A stretch of DNA of 64,000 nt from Alphaproteobacteria bacterium (GCA_900767645.1 CAAFZY010000005.1:28986-92985); one strand, 5' to 3'. Counted from the first letter of the stretch, positions 15,298 through 57,276 are shown. Notes: generated from the sequence alone by a model not told the origin. Translations and numbers: made by a program.

Positions 15298-15557
15298 GGT
15301 ATACCTTAAAATATTGATTAAAATTAGTGTGATAGTATAACTTTTGCGTTTTAAGTCAAGGGAGATGTTAAAAAATTAAACAAATTAAAGGTTTTTTAAC
15401 AAAGGTGCGGATATGCTCCGTGGTGAATGTATTGCAAAGTCTTTATTTTAAGAAAGATATATATCTTGCACTTATGACTAAAGATAGGCTTGTTTAGAGG
15501 GCTGTTTTGCAGTATAGTTTAACTTGTAAACAAGAATATTTTTTAGGGGAAAATATT

Positions 15558-16211
15558 ATGAAACACATTAATGAAAACGGTCGTTCCATGGTTGAAATGC
15601 TCGGCGTGCTTGCTATTATCGGCGTTTTGTCAGTAGGCGGTATTGCTGGTTATTCAAAAGCTATGAACAAATATAAAATCAACAAAACTACCGATCAGGT
15701 TTCAATGCTCGTTGCTAACCTTCGTACTTTGTTCTCTTCACAGGGTAACTATGCCGGTTTGACCAATGCTCAAGCTAAAAAATTCGGTGTTGTTCCGAAT
15801 GATATGTACACTTCAGTATCAGGTGACAGTATTAAAAACGCTTTCGGCGGCGATGTTACTATTGCTGCTGATAAAGCAAGAAACGGCGATGCCAGCAGCA
15901 ATGAAGCTTTCACCATCAGATATGACGGTTTGTCTTCAGAAGCTTGCGTTACTGTTTCTACCGGTGACTGGGGTTCAGGTCAGGCTTCCGGCTTGATTGC
16001 TCTCGGTGCAGGTGAAACAGCAACTTTGACTACTGCAATGATGACCGCTTTAATGACAGATGGCGGAACTCCGGCAGCTGCTGCTAAAGTAGTTACAGCG
16101 CAACCTGGTGATGCCAACGTTCCGACTCCGATTACCGTAAGCCAAGCTGTTGCCGCTTGTGATGGTGGCTCTAACAACTCTTCTTACTCTGTAATGTGGA
16201 AGTACTACTAA
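15558..16211 (+). CDS. type IV pilin-like protein, paralog 1
   Basis: Prepilin-type N-terminus NENG|RSMVEMLGVLAIIGVLSV with Glu at +5. An RBS (AGGGGA) precedes the ATG at 15558. Confidence 0.65.
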   Translation: MKHINENGRSMVEMLGVLAIIGVLSVGGIAGYSKAMNKYKINKTTDQVSMLVANLRTLFSSQGNYAGLTNAQAKKFGVVPNDMYTSVSGDSIKNAFGGDVTIAADKARNGDASSNEAFTIRYDGLSSEACVTVSTGDWGSGQASGLIALGAGETATLTTAMMTALMTDGGTPAAAAKVVTAQPGDANVPTPITVSQAVAACDGGSNNSSYSVMWKYY

Positions 16212-48234: not shown

Positions 48235-48720
48235 TTAACGTTTGCTGAATTGGTAAGAACGACGAGCTTTGGCTCTGCCGTATTTTTTACGTTCAACAAC
48301 ACGGTCATCACGAGTTAAGAAACCGGCCTGTTTCAAAACAGTGCGCAATTCCGGCTCGTATTCATTCAAAGCTTTTGAAATGCCGTGTTTAATGGCACCG
48401 GCCTGACCGGACAATCCGCCGCCTTTAACAGTGCAAACAACGTCAAATTCATTAACGCGGTTGGTAACTTCAAACGGTTGATTGATAATCATTTTCAAAA
48501 CCGGACGGGCAAAATACTGATCAAGAGATTTTTCATTGATGGTAATGTTGCCTTTACCGGGCATAACCCAAACGCGGGCAACGGCGTCTTTTCTTTTGCC
48601 GGTGGCATAAGCGCGACCCTGTTTGTCTTTGTTGGCTTTACGAACAACTTTAGCTTCAGCGGCGGCAGTTGTTGAGGCAGCAGCTTTAATATCCTGCAAA
48701 GATTCAATTTTTTTAGCCAT
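48235..48720 (-). CDS. rpsI: 30S ribosomal protein S9
   Basis: [16 protein letters not shown] ... [19 protein letters not shown] ... [18 protein letters not shown]. Confidence 0.9.
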
Positions 48721-49187
48721 TATAAAGCACTCCTTTTGTTTTTCGGGTTACGGGCGGCAATATCCAAAACTTCAGGATTTTGCGCAGTATGCGGATGTTC
48801 GTTGCCGGCATAAACTTTAAGTTTTGACATTTGTTGACGTCCCATCGGGTTGCGGGTAATCATGCGTTCAACAGCTTTTTCAATAACGCGTTCCGGAAAA
48901 CGACCGGCTAAAATTTTAGCAGGGGTGGTTTCTTTAATACCGCCAATCCAACCGGTGTGTTTGAAATATTTTTTATGGGTAAGTTTTTTGCCGGTTAATT
49001 TAACTTTGTCGGCATTAACAACAACAACATAGTCGCCGCAGTCAAGGTTAGGAACAAAGCAAGGTTTGTGTTTGCCGCGTAAAATTTTAGCAACTTCAGC
49101 TGCCAAACGGCCGAGCACAACACCTTCAGCATCAACAACATACCATTTTCTCTCAATATCTGAGGGTTTGGTTGCATATGTAGTCAT
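48720..49187 (-). CDS. rplM: 50S ribosomal protein L13
   Basis: [16 protein letters not shown]...KLTGKK..K.YF.HTGWIGG. Confidence 0.9.
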
Positions 49188-49297
49188 ATTTTTTCTCTTT
49201 CTTAAAAAATAGAAGGTTTGTTAAATTCGGGTTAAATATACATAAATATTTGCAATTGTCAACAACAAAAAACACCGCAAATGCAATATGTTAGAAC

Positions 49298-49315
49298 ACG
49301 GTATTATAATACCGT
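49298..49315. promoter_or_regulatory. perfect 18-bp palindrome ACGGTATTATAATACCGT in the rplM/pilin-2 divergent region (candidate operator)
   Basis: Self-complementary when read directly. Confidence 0.35.
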
Positions 49316-49679
49316 TATTTATGTTGTTGTTTTTGCACAATTTAGGGCTTTGCGTTTGTAGCTCTATGCGCGATTCTTGACATATAACTAAAGATATATA
49401 ACGCAATCGGACTTGACTTTTGCATAGGTTTTACTTATTCTGAAAGGTAGATAGTCAAATGGACTATTCGGAACTAAACAATTCCATGATAACGCGTCTT
49501 GAAACTTGGTGTAGGGACGTTAAATTTTATATGCCAACCGGTCGTTGACTGGAAGGCGGTAAAATAAGCCTTGCGGTCAATATACCGCGCTATTTCGTTG
49601 TCATAGTTGTTTACTTCCAGTCGCTTTTTTCATTGAAAACAGCGATTTTTTTGTAACCTTAAGATTATGAAGGATTTTT

Positions 49680-50348
49680 ATGATGATGAAATATAATGAA
49701 AACGGCCGTTCAATGGTTGAAATGCTTGGCGTATTGGCGATTATCGGCGTTTTGTCGGTTGGCGGTATCGCCGGCTATTCAAAGGCTATGAACAAATACA
49801 AAATTAACAAAACTACCGATCAGGTTTCAATGCTTGTTGCTAACATCCGTACTTTGTTCTCTTCACAGGGCAACTATAAAGGTTTGACTAATGCTCAGGC
49901 TATTAAATTCGGTGTTGTTCCGAATGATATGTATACTCCTAAATCAGGAAATGCAGAGATTACTGAAATTACAAACGCTTTTGGTGGCGCTGTTACTATT
50001 GCTGCTTCAGGAGGTCGTGCTAAAGATGATAATGAAGCTTTTACTATCGCTTACAGTGGGTTGACATCTGAGGCCTGCATTACCATTGCCACCGGTGACT
50101 GGGGTTCAGGTCAGGCTTCCGGTTTGATTGGTATTGCTGCGGTTGGTAAGGAAGCAGAAGACGCTACTGATAAGGGTGCTTTGGCCAAACTTGCAGAGAT
50201 CTATACCACAGCCACTGATGGAACTGCTAATGTAAGCATACCTGGTGCTACAGATACAGCCAATAGAACTCCGATGACTGTTTCTAAAGCTGTTGGAATA
50301 TGCAATGGATCTGGCAGCACTAACTCAGTTGCTTGGAAGTACTACTAA
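49680..50348 (+). CDS. type IV pilin-like protein, paralog 2
   Basis: N-terminal 60 aa near-identical to paralogs 1 and 3 (NENGRSMVEMLGVLAIIGVLSVGGIAGYSKAMNKYKINKTTDQVSMLVAN). An RBS GAAGGA is present. Confidence 0.65.
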   Translation: MMMKYNENGRSMVEMLGVLAIIGVLSVGGIAGYSKAMNKYKINKTTDQVSMLVANIRTLFSSQGNYKGLTNAQAIKFGVVPNDMYTPKSGNAEITEITNAFGGAVTIAASGGRAKDDNEAFTIAYSGLTSEACITIATGDWGSGQASGLIGIAAVGKEAEDATDKGALAKLAEIYTTATDGTANVSIPGATDTANRTPMTVSKAVGICNGSGSTNSVAWKYY

Positions 50349-50542
50349 TTTAAGCGAGTTTATGCAAAAGTGCGGCTATCCCCTACATGCCAATCTTTTG
50401 TGTAAAGAAAATATTATGTGCATAACATAATATTTTCCCCTAACGGAAACCCGATAAATTATTATCGGGTTTCTCTCTTTTTATAAAAATAAAACTTGCA
50501 TTACGGTGCAAAGTATAATAAACATACAAACAAATAAATTTC

Positions 50543-50618
50543 GGTTCCATCGTCTAGTGGTCTAGGACGCGGCCCTCTCAAGGCTGCAACACGGGTTCAA
50601 ATCCCGTTGGAATCACCA
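50543..50618 (+). tRNA. tRNA-Glu (anticodon CUC)
   Basis: GGTTCCATCGTCTAGTGGTCTAGGAC...anticodon loop CUCUCAA...GGTTCAAATCC...ACCA. It is followed by the terminator aaaaccgcctttacggcggtttt. Confidence 0.7.
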
Positions 50619-56235: not shown

Positions 56236-56862
56236 TTATAAATCCCATTTAATTTTTAAATGAGGAGTTTTTTTGCCGATATGCATGGTGCAAATGTCAT
56301 AAATGTTATTAAGAGTTAAATCTTTTAAGCATTGTCCTCCTTTGGCGCATTTTTGGTCGCCATACATAACCGCAATATTGTAATCATCTGTGTTCCAACC
56401 GTTCAGGCTTTCAAGTTGGGTGATGTTACCGGAGTTTTCTTTGGCGGTTATCAGTATGTTGCGGCATATCTCTAAATTTTGGGTGCTTTTAGTTTCAAGT
56501 TGAGGCTCCATAAATAAAATGACACGCTTTGCACCATCTTCATATAGCTCATAAGCGATATAATAGGCATTTTTAAAAATGTCATAAATGAACCCGTCAT
56601 AACTGACAGCCATTTCTTTGGGAATTTCGCCCATTTTAATAAAGATGCCGGTTAAGTTTGCGCCCTGTTTTAAATTAGCAAAATTATGCGCGTTGCTTGC
56701 AACCGCATTAATTACAGTGTTTAATTGTTCCGCTTGTTTGTTAAGCTTGTATTTGAACATTGCCTTAGAGTATCCGGCAATCGCCCCGACGGATAAAACC
56801 CCGATAATCGCAAGAACGCCGAGCATCTCGACCATAGACCGCCCATTTTCTGATTTCATCAT
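56236..56862 (-). CDS. type IV pilin-like protein, paralog 3
   Basis: MMKSENG|RSMVEMLGVLAIIGVLSVGAIAGYSKAMFKYKLNK. An RBS GAGGAG lies 8 nt upstream of the ATG at 56862. The ORF track extends to 56877. Confidence 0.6.
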   Translation of the reverse strand: MMKSENGRSMVEMLGVLAIIGVLSVGAIAGYSKAMFKYKLNKQAEQLNTVINAVASNAHNFANLKQGANLTGIFIKMGEIPKEMAVSYDGFIYDIFKNAYYIAYELYEDGAKRVILFMEPQLETKSTQNLEICRNILITAKENSGNITQLESLNGWNTDDYNIAVMYGDQKCAKGGQCLKDLTLNNIYDICTMHIGKKTPHLKIKWDL

Positions 56863-56919: not shown

Positions 56920-56954
56920 CAATATTTACGAGTCCGTGCTGTGTATAAGTTGTA
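56920..56954. repeat. 35-bp conserved noncoding motif, copy 2 (copy 1 at 440-474)
   Basis: See copy 1. It lies just upstream of the putative pilin-3 promoter TTGCAA-N17-TAATAT (minus strand). Confidence 0.6.
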
Positions 56955-56967
56955 TGTTATCGGCGGG

Positions 56968-57150
56968 ATTATTCCGCTGCGCTCCATTCACTGCGCTCAT
57001 CGGCTATTGCCGACCGGCGTTCTTCCGCCCGCCTTTCGCTTGTAGTCGGTCTGGCTCATAAGCTCTGCCCTATGGGCAATCGCTAACTCGCTGCGGTCAC
57101 TTGTTTTGTAAGCTCGCTGCGGTTGCTGTCGCTTTCCTGGCTCACCGTAA
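56968..57150. repeat. ~185-bp repeat element, full copy (partial copies at 34756-34866 and 35027-35105), located 3' of tRNA-Arg
   Basis: Aligned by eye to the two partial copies. It contains internal direct repeats ctcgctgcggt x2 and is followed by the hairpin aaaaaaagcaccgtaatggtgcttttttt. Confidence 0.65.
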
Positions 57151-57199
57151 ATGTCTATCCGCACCATTAAAAAAAGCACCGTAATGGTGCTTTTTTTAA

Positions 57200-57276
57200 T
57201 GGCGCGCCCGGCGGGATTCGAACTCACAACCTTCTGATCCGTAGTCAGATGCTCTATCCAATTGAGCTACGGGCGC
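57200..57276 (-). tRNA. tRNA-Arg (anticodon ACG)
   Basis: GCGCCCGTAGCTCAATTGGATAGAGCA...anticodon loop CUACGGA...GGTTGTGAGTTCGAATC...GCCA, from the reverse complement. Confidence 0.85.

Follow-up and report, generated by a model that had tools for sequence, protein, structure and literature searches.

A conserved leader RNA with two mutually exclusive folds upstream of a type IV pilin gene, a candidate conditional transcription terminator

The pilin locus and its promoter

The window analyzed here, a stretch of 64,000 nucleotides with 41% G+C from an uncultured gut alphaproteobacterium, carries the gene pil2 (49680 to 50348, plus strand), which encodes a type IV (IVb-like) major pilin of 222 amino acids and is preceded by a structured leader RNA running from an estimated transcription start to the end of a U-tract (49447 to 49653, plus strand). 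According to our analysis, this leader belongs to a family of RNAs that have two mutually exclusive conserved folds, and it quite probably serves pil2 as a promoter-proximal 5' leader and cis-acting conditional transcription terminator. Identical RplM proteins are found on human-gut metagenome contigs, and related genomes are labelled as metagenome-assembled genomes of Alphaproteobacteria. The pilin assignment is based on the Pfam domains Bundlin and PilS in homologues and on the NCBI name "type 4 pilus major pilin"; an exact look-up of the Pil2 protein did not return an identical copy elsewhere. A spacer of 492 nucleotides (49188 to 49679) separates pil2 from the divergent rplM gene (48720 to 49187, minus strand), and a Shine-Dalgarno sequence, GAAGGA, together with the start codon can be read at 49669 to 49682. 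The window contains two more pilin paralogues, pil1 (15558 to 16211, plus strand) and pil3 (56236 to 56862, minus strand). By the two covariance models described below, R1 and R2, pil2 alone carries a leader element in the window; none was found before pil1 or pil3, and pil1 has only an upstream box and the promoter region in common with pil2.

A preliminary description of this region, made from the sequence alone, had proposed that a promoter with the hexamers TTGACT and TATTCT gives rise to a long structured leader. Both hexamers of this sigma-70-type promoter (49413 to 49441, plus strand) are present as claimed, TTGACT at 49413 to 49418 and TATTCT at 49436 to 49441, with a spacing of 17 nucleotides. 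Taken by itself the match is not significant, as a scan returned 7 such sites with 6.1 expected. Both hexamers are invariant in nine conspecific contigs, in which four spacer positions and one position just 5' of the -35 element vary, and in 88 distinct homologous upstream regions the -35 (CTTGAC or CTTTAC) and -10 (TAnnnT) elements lie at a fixed distance, with the end of the -10 element 3 to 4 nucleotides before the start of the RNA model in 55 of the 88. Since this distance is fixed among the homologues, we regard the proposed promoter as confirmed and infer a transcription start at about 49447 to 49449, some 6 nucleotides past TATTCT. With the ATG at 49680, the leader would thus be about 232 nucleotides long, in agreement with the preliminary description. 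The U-tract ends only 27 nucleotides before the ATG, too short an interval to hold another promoter for pil2.

A further conserved box, ATAACTAAAGATATATAAC with variants such as TACTAAAGTTATATAAC and TACTAATGATATATAAC, ends 8 to 11 nucleotides 5' of the -35 element and occupies 49384 to 49402 in the window. It is also present at 15470 to 15487 before pil1, which is without leader RNA, and upstream in several of the compared loci, which are designated by L numbers (L019, L020, L092, L098, L113, L144, and L044). The box was seen before major-pilin genes only and not before other leader-bearing genes; it is probably a pilin-specific transcription factor site and would represent a separate regulatory layer.

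Two mutually exclusive conserved folds

The leader RNA scores 222.5 bits with covariance model R1 and is more stable than its shuffled versions (z = -4.84, with none of 200 shuffles as good). All features given in this section are on the plus strand. In the first of the two structures, fold A, 93.7% of the alignment cells of 87 distinct sequences are paired, against 74.1% in shuffles and 33 to 47% in slid controls, and compensatory changes are found in 51 of the 57 pairs, with 0 of 500 shuffles as good; these counts come partly from model-fitted alignments of phylogenetically related sequences. G-U pairs are conserved as well, for example at alignment positions 54/402 and 55/401, and therefore indicate selection on this strand as RNA.

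Fold A begins with the 5'-terminal hairpin P0 (GAUAGUC/GACUAU(U), 49450 to 49468), in which 6 of 6 pairs are compensatory and 95.9% of cells pair. The 5' strand of P1, GGAA-C-UAAACAAU (49470 to 49482), is paired with the 3' strand GUUGUUUA-C-UUCC (49606 to 49618), both strands being supported by covariation in the family; P1b shows compensatory changes in 7 of 8 pairs, while P1a pairs in 90.6% of cells with hardly any covariation. An alternative local pairing of GGAA with UUCC at 49482 to 49485, paired in 93.5% of cells against 90.9% in shuffles and thus weakly supported, is a possible third alternative. P2 joins GAUAACG (49488 to 49494) to 49596 to 49602, with 7 of 7 pairs compensatory and 96.8% of cells pairing, and together P1 (GGAA-N-7/8 base pairs) and P2 close a four-way junction. 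Within it lies the P3 hairpin (CGUCUU...GGGACG, 49495 to 49519; 6 of 6 pairs compensatory), whose loop sequence GUGUA (49509 to 49513) is complementary to the sequence UAUAU (49528 to 49532) in the linker between P3 and P4. The loop-linker match score of 4.18 compares with 3.41 ± 0.09 in permuted pairs, none of 500 being as high, and the two segments are exchanged together among homologues (GUGUA/UACAC, CGCA/UGCG, AUACA/UGUAU), which indicates a pseudoknot, weak in the window copy, where the pairing would include two G-U pairs. P4 (49534 to 49556) is formed by X'1 (CC..CCGGUC, 49534 to 49543) and X (GACUGGAAGG, 49547 to 49556); it pairs in 90 to 99% of cells, has compensatory changes in 5 of 8 pairs and a loop whose length differs among homologues, and sequesters the strand that forms the 5' side of the antiterminator described next. 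The hairpin P5/P5a (CGGU...ACCG around GCC/GGU, 49557 to 49587) is common to both folds, with 4 of 4 and 3 of 3 pairs compensatory, respectively, and with conserved internal loops, AAAAUAA and CAAUAU in the window and AAAAUAR and YAAUAU in the family.

The preliminary description had also pointed to two successive hairpins, each followed by a U-rich stretch, and had read them as tandem terminators. Both are where it placed them: the long-range stem GACTGGAAG (49547 to 49555) with CTTCCAGTC (49614 to 49622), followed by GCTTTTTT, and the hairpin CGCTTTTTTCATTGAAAACAGCG (49622 to 49644), followed by ATTTTTTTG. Here, instead, we find one antiterminator and one terminator, overlapping in the sequence AGUC (49619 to 49622), the stretch GCUUUUUU 3' of the first stem being the 5' arm of the terminator. 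The antiterminator helix joins X, GACUGGAAG, to the strand X'2, CUUCCAGUC (49614 to 49622), and is paired in 98.7% of cells of 87 sequences; 4 of its 9 pairs show compensatory changes, 0 of 500 shuffles reach its paired fraction or its covariation score, and slid controls give 13 to 59%. This helix is not part of search model R1, and on an independent MAFFT alignment 99.4% of it is paired. The family consensus is GRCNGGAAG for X and CUUCCNGYC for X'2, X being equally complementary to X'2 and X'1. Among the changes, 26 sequences have G-C for A-U, 17 have C-G for U-A, 7 have A-U for G-C, 4 have U-A for A-U, and 3 have A-U for U-A. The intrinsic terminator (49619 to 49653), AGUCGCU.UUUUC-AUU-GAAAA.CAGCGAU(U), consists of a stem at 49619 to 49647 and a U7 tract at 49646 to 49652, with compensatory changes in 11 of 11 pairs, a stem-loop energy of -9.7 kcal/mol, and a U-run that is also seen in the family alignment; a simple scan missed it because the stem has an internal mismatch.

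P1 takes CUUCC from the X'2 strand and the 5' arm of the terminator takes AGUC, a 4-nucleotide overlap, and therefore X:X'2 cannot coexist with P4, P1a, or the full terminator. Once AGUC is taken by the antiterminator, the stability of the terminator drops from -9.7 to -5.0 kcal/mol. The second structure, fold B, further includes a second hairpin (49589 to 49607) formed by GCUAU (49589 to 49593) and AUAGU (49603 to 49607), with the 3' strand of P2 (49596 to 49602) in its loop; 90.9% of its cells pair, with few compensatory changes and with a subclass that has CCGU/ACGG instead. Scored on 35 sequences aligned independently with MAFFT, fold B has 95.6% of its cells paired and compensatory changes in 13 of 22 pairs; covariance model R2 was built from the fold-B alignment. 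For the window RNA the minimum free energy is -68.9 kcal/mol, compared to -49.1 kcal/mol when the antiterminator is forced, and across the family the antiterminator fold costs 11.6 ± 4.8 kcal/mol (n = 78). Since fold A is thus favored thermodynamically, termination is predicted to be the default (off) state. The leader thereby combines a covarying structured domain with a mutually exclusive terminator/antiterminator platform, as riboswitches in general do.

An attenuator of the leader-peptide type (trp/his) was considered and rejected. The window has a 29-codon open reading frame (ORF) starting from the P0 loop, which is not conserved, its ATG being absent in most homologues, and no conserved leader ORF was found in the homologues, where the longest internal ORFs are mostly shorter than 20 codons with scattered starts.

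A leader family upstream of cell-surface genes

A pilin profile scan of one genome per species yielded 80 pilin loci. In seven species nhmmer detected the leader directly 5' of the pilin gene, with 78 to 98% identity, and in five more the match was weak. Eight of these leaders, with a hand-curated structure that encodes fold A, were used to build model R1, which identified 15 strong copies before pilin genes among the 80 pilin loci of other species, in addition to several weaker variants. A metagenome scan with a degenerate pattern taken from the conserved core gave at least 120 matching stretches, and R1 recognized more than 90 full-length copies among the metagenome matches listed. The hairpins, whose lack of conservation in orthologous leaders would, by the preliminary description, have refuted its reading, proved to be conserved and to show covariation across more than 100 homologues. 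In 90 of the 96 copies with enough downstream sequence, a same-strand ORF of at least 60 amino acids starts within 45 nucleotides of the model end, and the other six are upstream members of tandem arrays. The element, presented at the outset as belonging to a pilin gene, is not pilin specific, since only about one-third of the family members precede pilins. The remaining downstream genes encode outer-membrane beta-barrel proteins, lipoproteins (one with a PEGA domain), glycosyltransferases (DXD type, GT92/GT2, RgpF), and XRE-type helix-turn-helix (HTH) regulators; they hang together as genes of the cell surface and envelope, joined by XRE regulators, and do not make up a metabolic pathway. The family comprises RNAs of about 200 nucleotides and stands before cell-surface genes of uncultured Alphaproteobacteria from gut and rumen.

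Conservation is tightest among conspecific strains. The spacer is common to the nine conspecific contigs, and just three columns between 49442 and the ATG are variable, namely, 49448 together with 49505 and 49513, the latter two both in the P3 loop. Leader variability thus amounts to 3 of 246 columns, a figure taken from the spacer comparison, as the comparison based on gene calls puts the identity of the leader too low owing to a 6-nucleotide offset. In the same strains (L001 to L009), whose RplM proteins are identical, the pilin protein (219 to 227 amino acids) is 68 to 76% identical to that of the window, and rplM DNA is 99.4 to 100% identical. Because the leader is near-invariant and the pilin so divergent, we recognize a sharp change at the start codon, from purifying selection on the leader to diversifying selection on the pilin, a pattern suggestive of recombination or of variation in an antigen or phage receptor.

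In L091 (560 to 1172), L142, L156, L164, L093, L099, and L168, two or three leader-like elements follow one another before one gene; every element comes with its own promoter-like site and the majority also with a terminator, and the gene in L091 encodes an OmpA-like beta-barrel protein. Variant subclasses (L034, 2243 to 2482; L054, 2238 to 2481; L047, 954 to 1192; L091, 560 to 710; L013, 350 to 516; L014, 3410 to 3579) retain P0, P1, P2, P3, and the terminator logic and differ in the inner domain. Several variants have a hairpin CCCCGA:UCGGGG and an antiterminator GUCGGGGAG:CUCUCCGAC, and some of the variant copies stand before small XRE-type HTH genes. Among the pilin-like ORFs behind a leader, those of L130, L165, L140 (795 to 986), L134, and L018 show apparent N-terminal extensions of about 35 to 165 residues before the GRSM(I/V)EMLGVL prepilin motif, with a seemingly duplicated prepilin leader in L018; these extensions may be real, or the starts may be miscalled.

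The multiplicity of the family, with some copies in tandem, would also fit chance hairpins or selfish repeated DNA, such as miniature inverted-repeat transposable elements or repetitive extragenic palindromes, without any RNA function. This explanation is very improbable, given massive strand-specific covariation, conserved G-U pairs, fixed orientation and start-codon distance, and an attached promoter. A repeat or mobile element was likewise rejected, as no second copy is present in the 64-kb window and no match was found in plasmids or phages.

When we compared the leader with known RNA families, no family of Rfam 15 reached its threshold on the leader or on 20 + 20 diverse homologues. The preliminary description had mentioned control by cyclic di-GMP (c-di-GMP) riboswitches and an Rfam search as the way to check it. 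A c-di-GMP-II riboswitch controls the type IV pilin gene pilA1 in Clostridioides difficile, and this precedent, together with a gene set of surface proteins and regulators like that of c-di-GMP regulons, is circumstantial support for one of the known classes (GEMM-I or c-di-GMP-II). We nevertheless give such a class almost no credence: c-di-GMP-I (RF01051), c-di-GMP-II (RF01786), T-box, and other riboswitch models gave no match in the leader and 20 homologues at expectation values (E) up to 10, tighter searches of the window at gathering thresholds and of 20 homologues at E up to 0.1 likewise gave no riboswitch match, and the leader differs from both classes in architecture, with its four-way junction and the sRNA-Xcc1-like domain described below. 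No GGDEF, EAL, or PilZ motif was detected in a scan of the window ORFs, an absence that says little in a fragment of 64 kb. Hence, of the riboswitch- or attenuator-type control proposed beforehand, the part that stands is a predicted conditional-termination element, whereas neither the pair of terminators nor the c-di-GMP class was borne out; a new c-di-GMP-sensing class would be a form of the conditional terminator proposed here.

The sole recurrent sub-threshold match is to sRNA-Xcc1 (RF02221), with 43.2 bits in L164, 33.4 in L099, and 30.1 in L092, against a cut-off of 53; the window leader itself gave no sRNA-Xcc1 match at E up to 10. The matches run over the full model length (1 to 87), in register, from X to X'2. 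The closing stem of sRNA-Xcc1 (9 base pairs around a CNGG core) corresponds to X:X'2, its hairpin 1, with AAUA-type A/U-rich internal loops and a 3-base-pair tip, to P5/P5a, and its hairpin 2 to the CUAU/AUAG hairpin of fold B, the CCGU/ACGG subclass of which is exactly as in the Xcc1 consensus; in both RNAs a UUNAG-like linker and then a U-rich tail follow. A true copy of sRNA-Xcc1 on a Pseudomonas aeruginosa plasmid (NZ_CP093017.1; L210, 1497 to 1580), with an Rfam score of 72.6 bits, is scored by R2 in register at 25.1 bits (E = 4e-4) and is not detected by R1, as expected from a model of fold A. The plasmid copy lies 38 nucleotides 5' of a co-oriented BRO-family gene, an arrangement that fits a cis-leader role for sRNA-Xcc1 too; the sequence CUCCCGA and a U-run just 5' of it are perhaps the 3' end of another copy. 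The antiterminator stem GUCGGGGAG:CUCUCCGAC of the variant subclasses is close to the canonical closing stem of sRNA-Xcc1 (GUCGGGAG/CUCCCGAC in L210).

sRNA-Xcc1 was seen on Northern blots as an RNA of 88 nucleotides (PMC2996969), and it precedes symE in integron cassettes (bioRxiv 10.1101/2025.06.18.660453) and an ORF6N-domain gene in APSE phages (bioRxiv 10.1101/2020.03.17.996009); of the seven copies in Xylella, five form a tandem series (PMC12189769). Both RNAs are multi-copy, sometimes tandem, and stand just 5' of a co-oriented gene. Their hosts differ, namely, Xanthomonas integron cassettes, Xylella, Pseudomonas plasmids, and APSE phages for sRNA-Xcc1 and gut and rumen Alphaproteobacteria, rather than Gamma- or Betaproteobacteria or mobile elements, for the leader family, which, unlike sRNA-Xcc1, precedes chromosomal cell-surface genes. 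The Xcc1-like domain makes up only the 3' half of the leader, whose total length is about 205 nucleotides; a 5' domain of 100 nucleotides (P0, the P1 to P4 strands, and the pseudoknot) competes with it, and a canonical terminator comes after it, again unlike sRNA-Xcc1; its promoter lies about 100 nucleotides 5' of the closing stem, with the conserved domain in between, whereas the sRNA-Xcc1 transcript of about 88 nucleotides begins at the closing stem (the ends of the leader being predicted). sRNA-Xcc1 is described in the literature as trans-acting, and our literature search found neither a published cis mechanism for it nor a described pilin-associated motif. Because the leader does not reach the gathering score, we treat it as a distant, 5'-extended relative of sRNA-Xcc1 and not as a member of that family.

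This relationship bears on whether the element is instead a stand-alone gene of about 200 nucleotides for a trans-acting small RNA that merely happens to lie 5' of the pilin gene. Such a gene would have its own promoter at a fixed distance, a strong conserved terminator, and tandem copies with a promoter each, all of which are found here; the strongly favored terminator fold would make a terminated RNA of about 205 nucleotides the expected main product, and the distant relative is itself known as a short RNA with tandem copies in Xylella. Against it, the orientation is always that of the downstream gene, with the ORF start within 45 nucleotides in all copies but the upstream array members, the downstream gene is left no space for a promoter of its own, and a selected antiterminator helix that overlaps the terminator would be purposeless. 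Owing to the gene linkage and the conserved antiterminator, we deem a purely trans-acting small RNA unlikely; a dual role is conceivable, in which the terminated leader, being abundant, would have a trans function as well.

Several further features of the window lie outside the leader. A strong terminator with a 13-base-pair stem (50445 to 50474) is located 3' of pil2, and about 70 nucleotides further there is a tRNA gene (50543 to 50615); because of this terminator, pil2 is taken to be a monocistronic unit from leader to terminator. In the rplM-pil2 spacer, a perfect 18-nucleotide palindrome, ACGGTATTATAATACCGT (49298 to 49315), invariant among the conspecific strains, is placed between the rplM promoter (TTGACA-16-TATATT, minus strand, 49262 to 49235) and the pilin box, and could serve as an operator or as a bidirectional structure. 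Between a tRNA gene (57203 to 57276) and pil3, and thus upstream of the latter, a G+C-rich stretch of about 200 nucleotides with repeated GCAGCGAG-like motifs (56950 to 57160, minus strand) contrasts with the A+T-rich spacers elsewhere; its fold z score is only -1.97, and Rfam at gathering thresholds gave no match.

Candidate mechanism and comparison with known systems

In the mechanism that we propose, RNA would be made from about 6 nucleotides past TATTCT and would adopt one of the two folds. In fold A, comprising P0, P1 and P2 around the four-way junction, P3 with its pseudoknot, P4, and P5, the strand GACUGGAAG would be locked in P4 and CUUCC held by P1, leaving AGUC free, so that the terminator would form and polymerase would stop 27 nucleotides before the start codon. 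In fold B, GACUGGAAG would pair with CUUCCAGUC and close the compact sRNA-Xcc1-like domain, that is, P5/P5a plus the CUAU/AUAG hairpin, which removes the base of the terminator stem, so that polymerase would read into the pilin gene. Three layers can thus be distinguished, with the 5' domain (P1, P2, and P4) as a putative anti-antiterminator, the Xcc1-like domain with X:X'2 as the antiterminator, and finally the terminator. An effector would shift the balance between them, either a small molecule or second messenger, making the leader a riboswitch, or an RNA-binding protein. A small molecule bound to fold A would turn the gene off, and a small molecule or protein bound to the Xcc1-like fold B would turn it on, the latter being attractive because this core is what the leader has in common with sRNA-Xcc1 and because stabilization is required for fold B. 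Roughly, our expectation falls a little short of half on a small-molecule riboswitch and slightly lower still on a protein, with a small share left for other effectors.

A number of points weigh against the conditional terminator. The antiterminator fold is far less stable than its competitor, the gap being 20 kcal/mol for the window RNA with a family mean of about 12 kcal/mol, and a switch would therefore need a strong effector or kinetic control; otherwise, the RNA might always terminate. The effector, whether ligand or protein partner, is hypothetical, and no single metabolite suggests itself from the genes behind the leader, which range from pilins, outer-membrane proteins, and lipoproteins to glycosyltransferases and XRE regulators. 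The transcription start, termination, and read-through are predictions from the sequence, the shuffle statistics overstate significance because of the model-fitted alignments and the relatedness of the sequences, and tandem copies with their own promoters, as well as the trans-acting label of sRNA-Xcc1, also suit a stand-alone small RNA.

The stability gap raises the question of a dedicated protein antiterminator, for example a paralogue of NusG such as RfaH, LoaP, or UpxY or an RNA-binding protein similar to LicT, which would recognize the leader and switch on the surface genes. The regulon, with its pili, outer-membrane proteins, lipoproteins, and polysaccharide glycosyltransferases, resembles those of RfaH and UpxY, the element is strictly promoter proximal, and the stabilization of about 12 kcal/mol that is needed recalls protein-stabilized RAT elements. 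In addition, GGCGGUAA in the window and GGCGGUAG in L012 resemble ops (GGCGGTAG). This resemblance was rejected, as the bases in question make up the 5' strand of P5, which changes freely together with its partner (CGGU/ACCG, UAGC/GCUA, CGAC/GUCG); there is no conserved GGCGGTAGnnTG, the strand varying as CGGU, CGGC, UAGC, UGGU, and CGAC with compensation. Furthermore, a NusG paralogue or other candidate protein was not found, though whole genomes were not searched, and a complex junction of about 190 nucleotides with a pseudoknot is larger than the known targets of protein antiterminators. We hold such a dedicated system to be distinctly unlikely, and it overlaps with the protein branch of the conditional terminator.

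The family is large, absent from Rfam 15, and not found described in the literature searched, and its proposed mechanism is of a known kind. A bolder reading, which we offer tentatively and consider doubtful, is that of a new riboswitch class of about 190 nucleotides with a four-way junction and a pseudoknot, whose Xcc1-like core would bind a global signal, for example a nucleotide second messenger, and govern dozens of cell-surface genes; it would recast sRNA-Xcc1 as the sensor/antiterminator module of cis leaders. If the conditional terminator is confirmed, a large structured regulatory RNA family with at least 120 metagenome matches would control hypervariable surface antigens in poorly known gut and rumen Alphaproteobacteria, and the orphan sRNA-Xcc1 of integron cassettes, plasmids, and phages, found before symE, BRO-family, and ORF6N-domain genes, would receive a mechanistic re-reading. 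The leader offers a testable switch with defined helices and a regulon from which the signal could be inferred.

Among known systems, the pilA1 c-di-GMP-II leader is also structured, has a terminator before a type IV pilin gene, and belongs to a comparable surface-protein regulon, but it differs from the window leader in fold and phylum and shares no covariance-model match with it. RfaH with ops (JUMPStart), LoaP, and UpxY likewise act through promoter-proximal leader elements before pilus, outer-membrane, and polysaccharide genes, with terminator read-through as the regulated step, as proposed for the leader. However, ops is a short DNA element, whereas the ops-like bases of the leader form a covarying RNA helix, and the leader genes are mostly single rather than in long operons. 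The closest parallels in architecture are the terminator/antiterminator riboswitch platforms such as the pbuE adenine ON switch, the PyrR-regulated pyr leaders, and the trp leader, which rely on exclusive helices as well. As in these platforms, one strand of the leader is common to the closing stem of the presumed sensor domain and to the 5' arm of the terminator, and the terminator is the thermodynamic default; as in three-layer attenuators, an element further upstream, here P4/P1, would act as the anti-antiterminator. Unlike those platforms, the leader is without a leader peptide, matches no curated class, and has two alternative folds that are both large and conserved.

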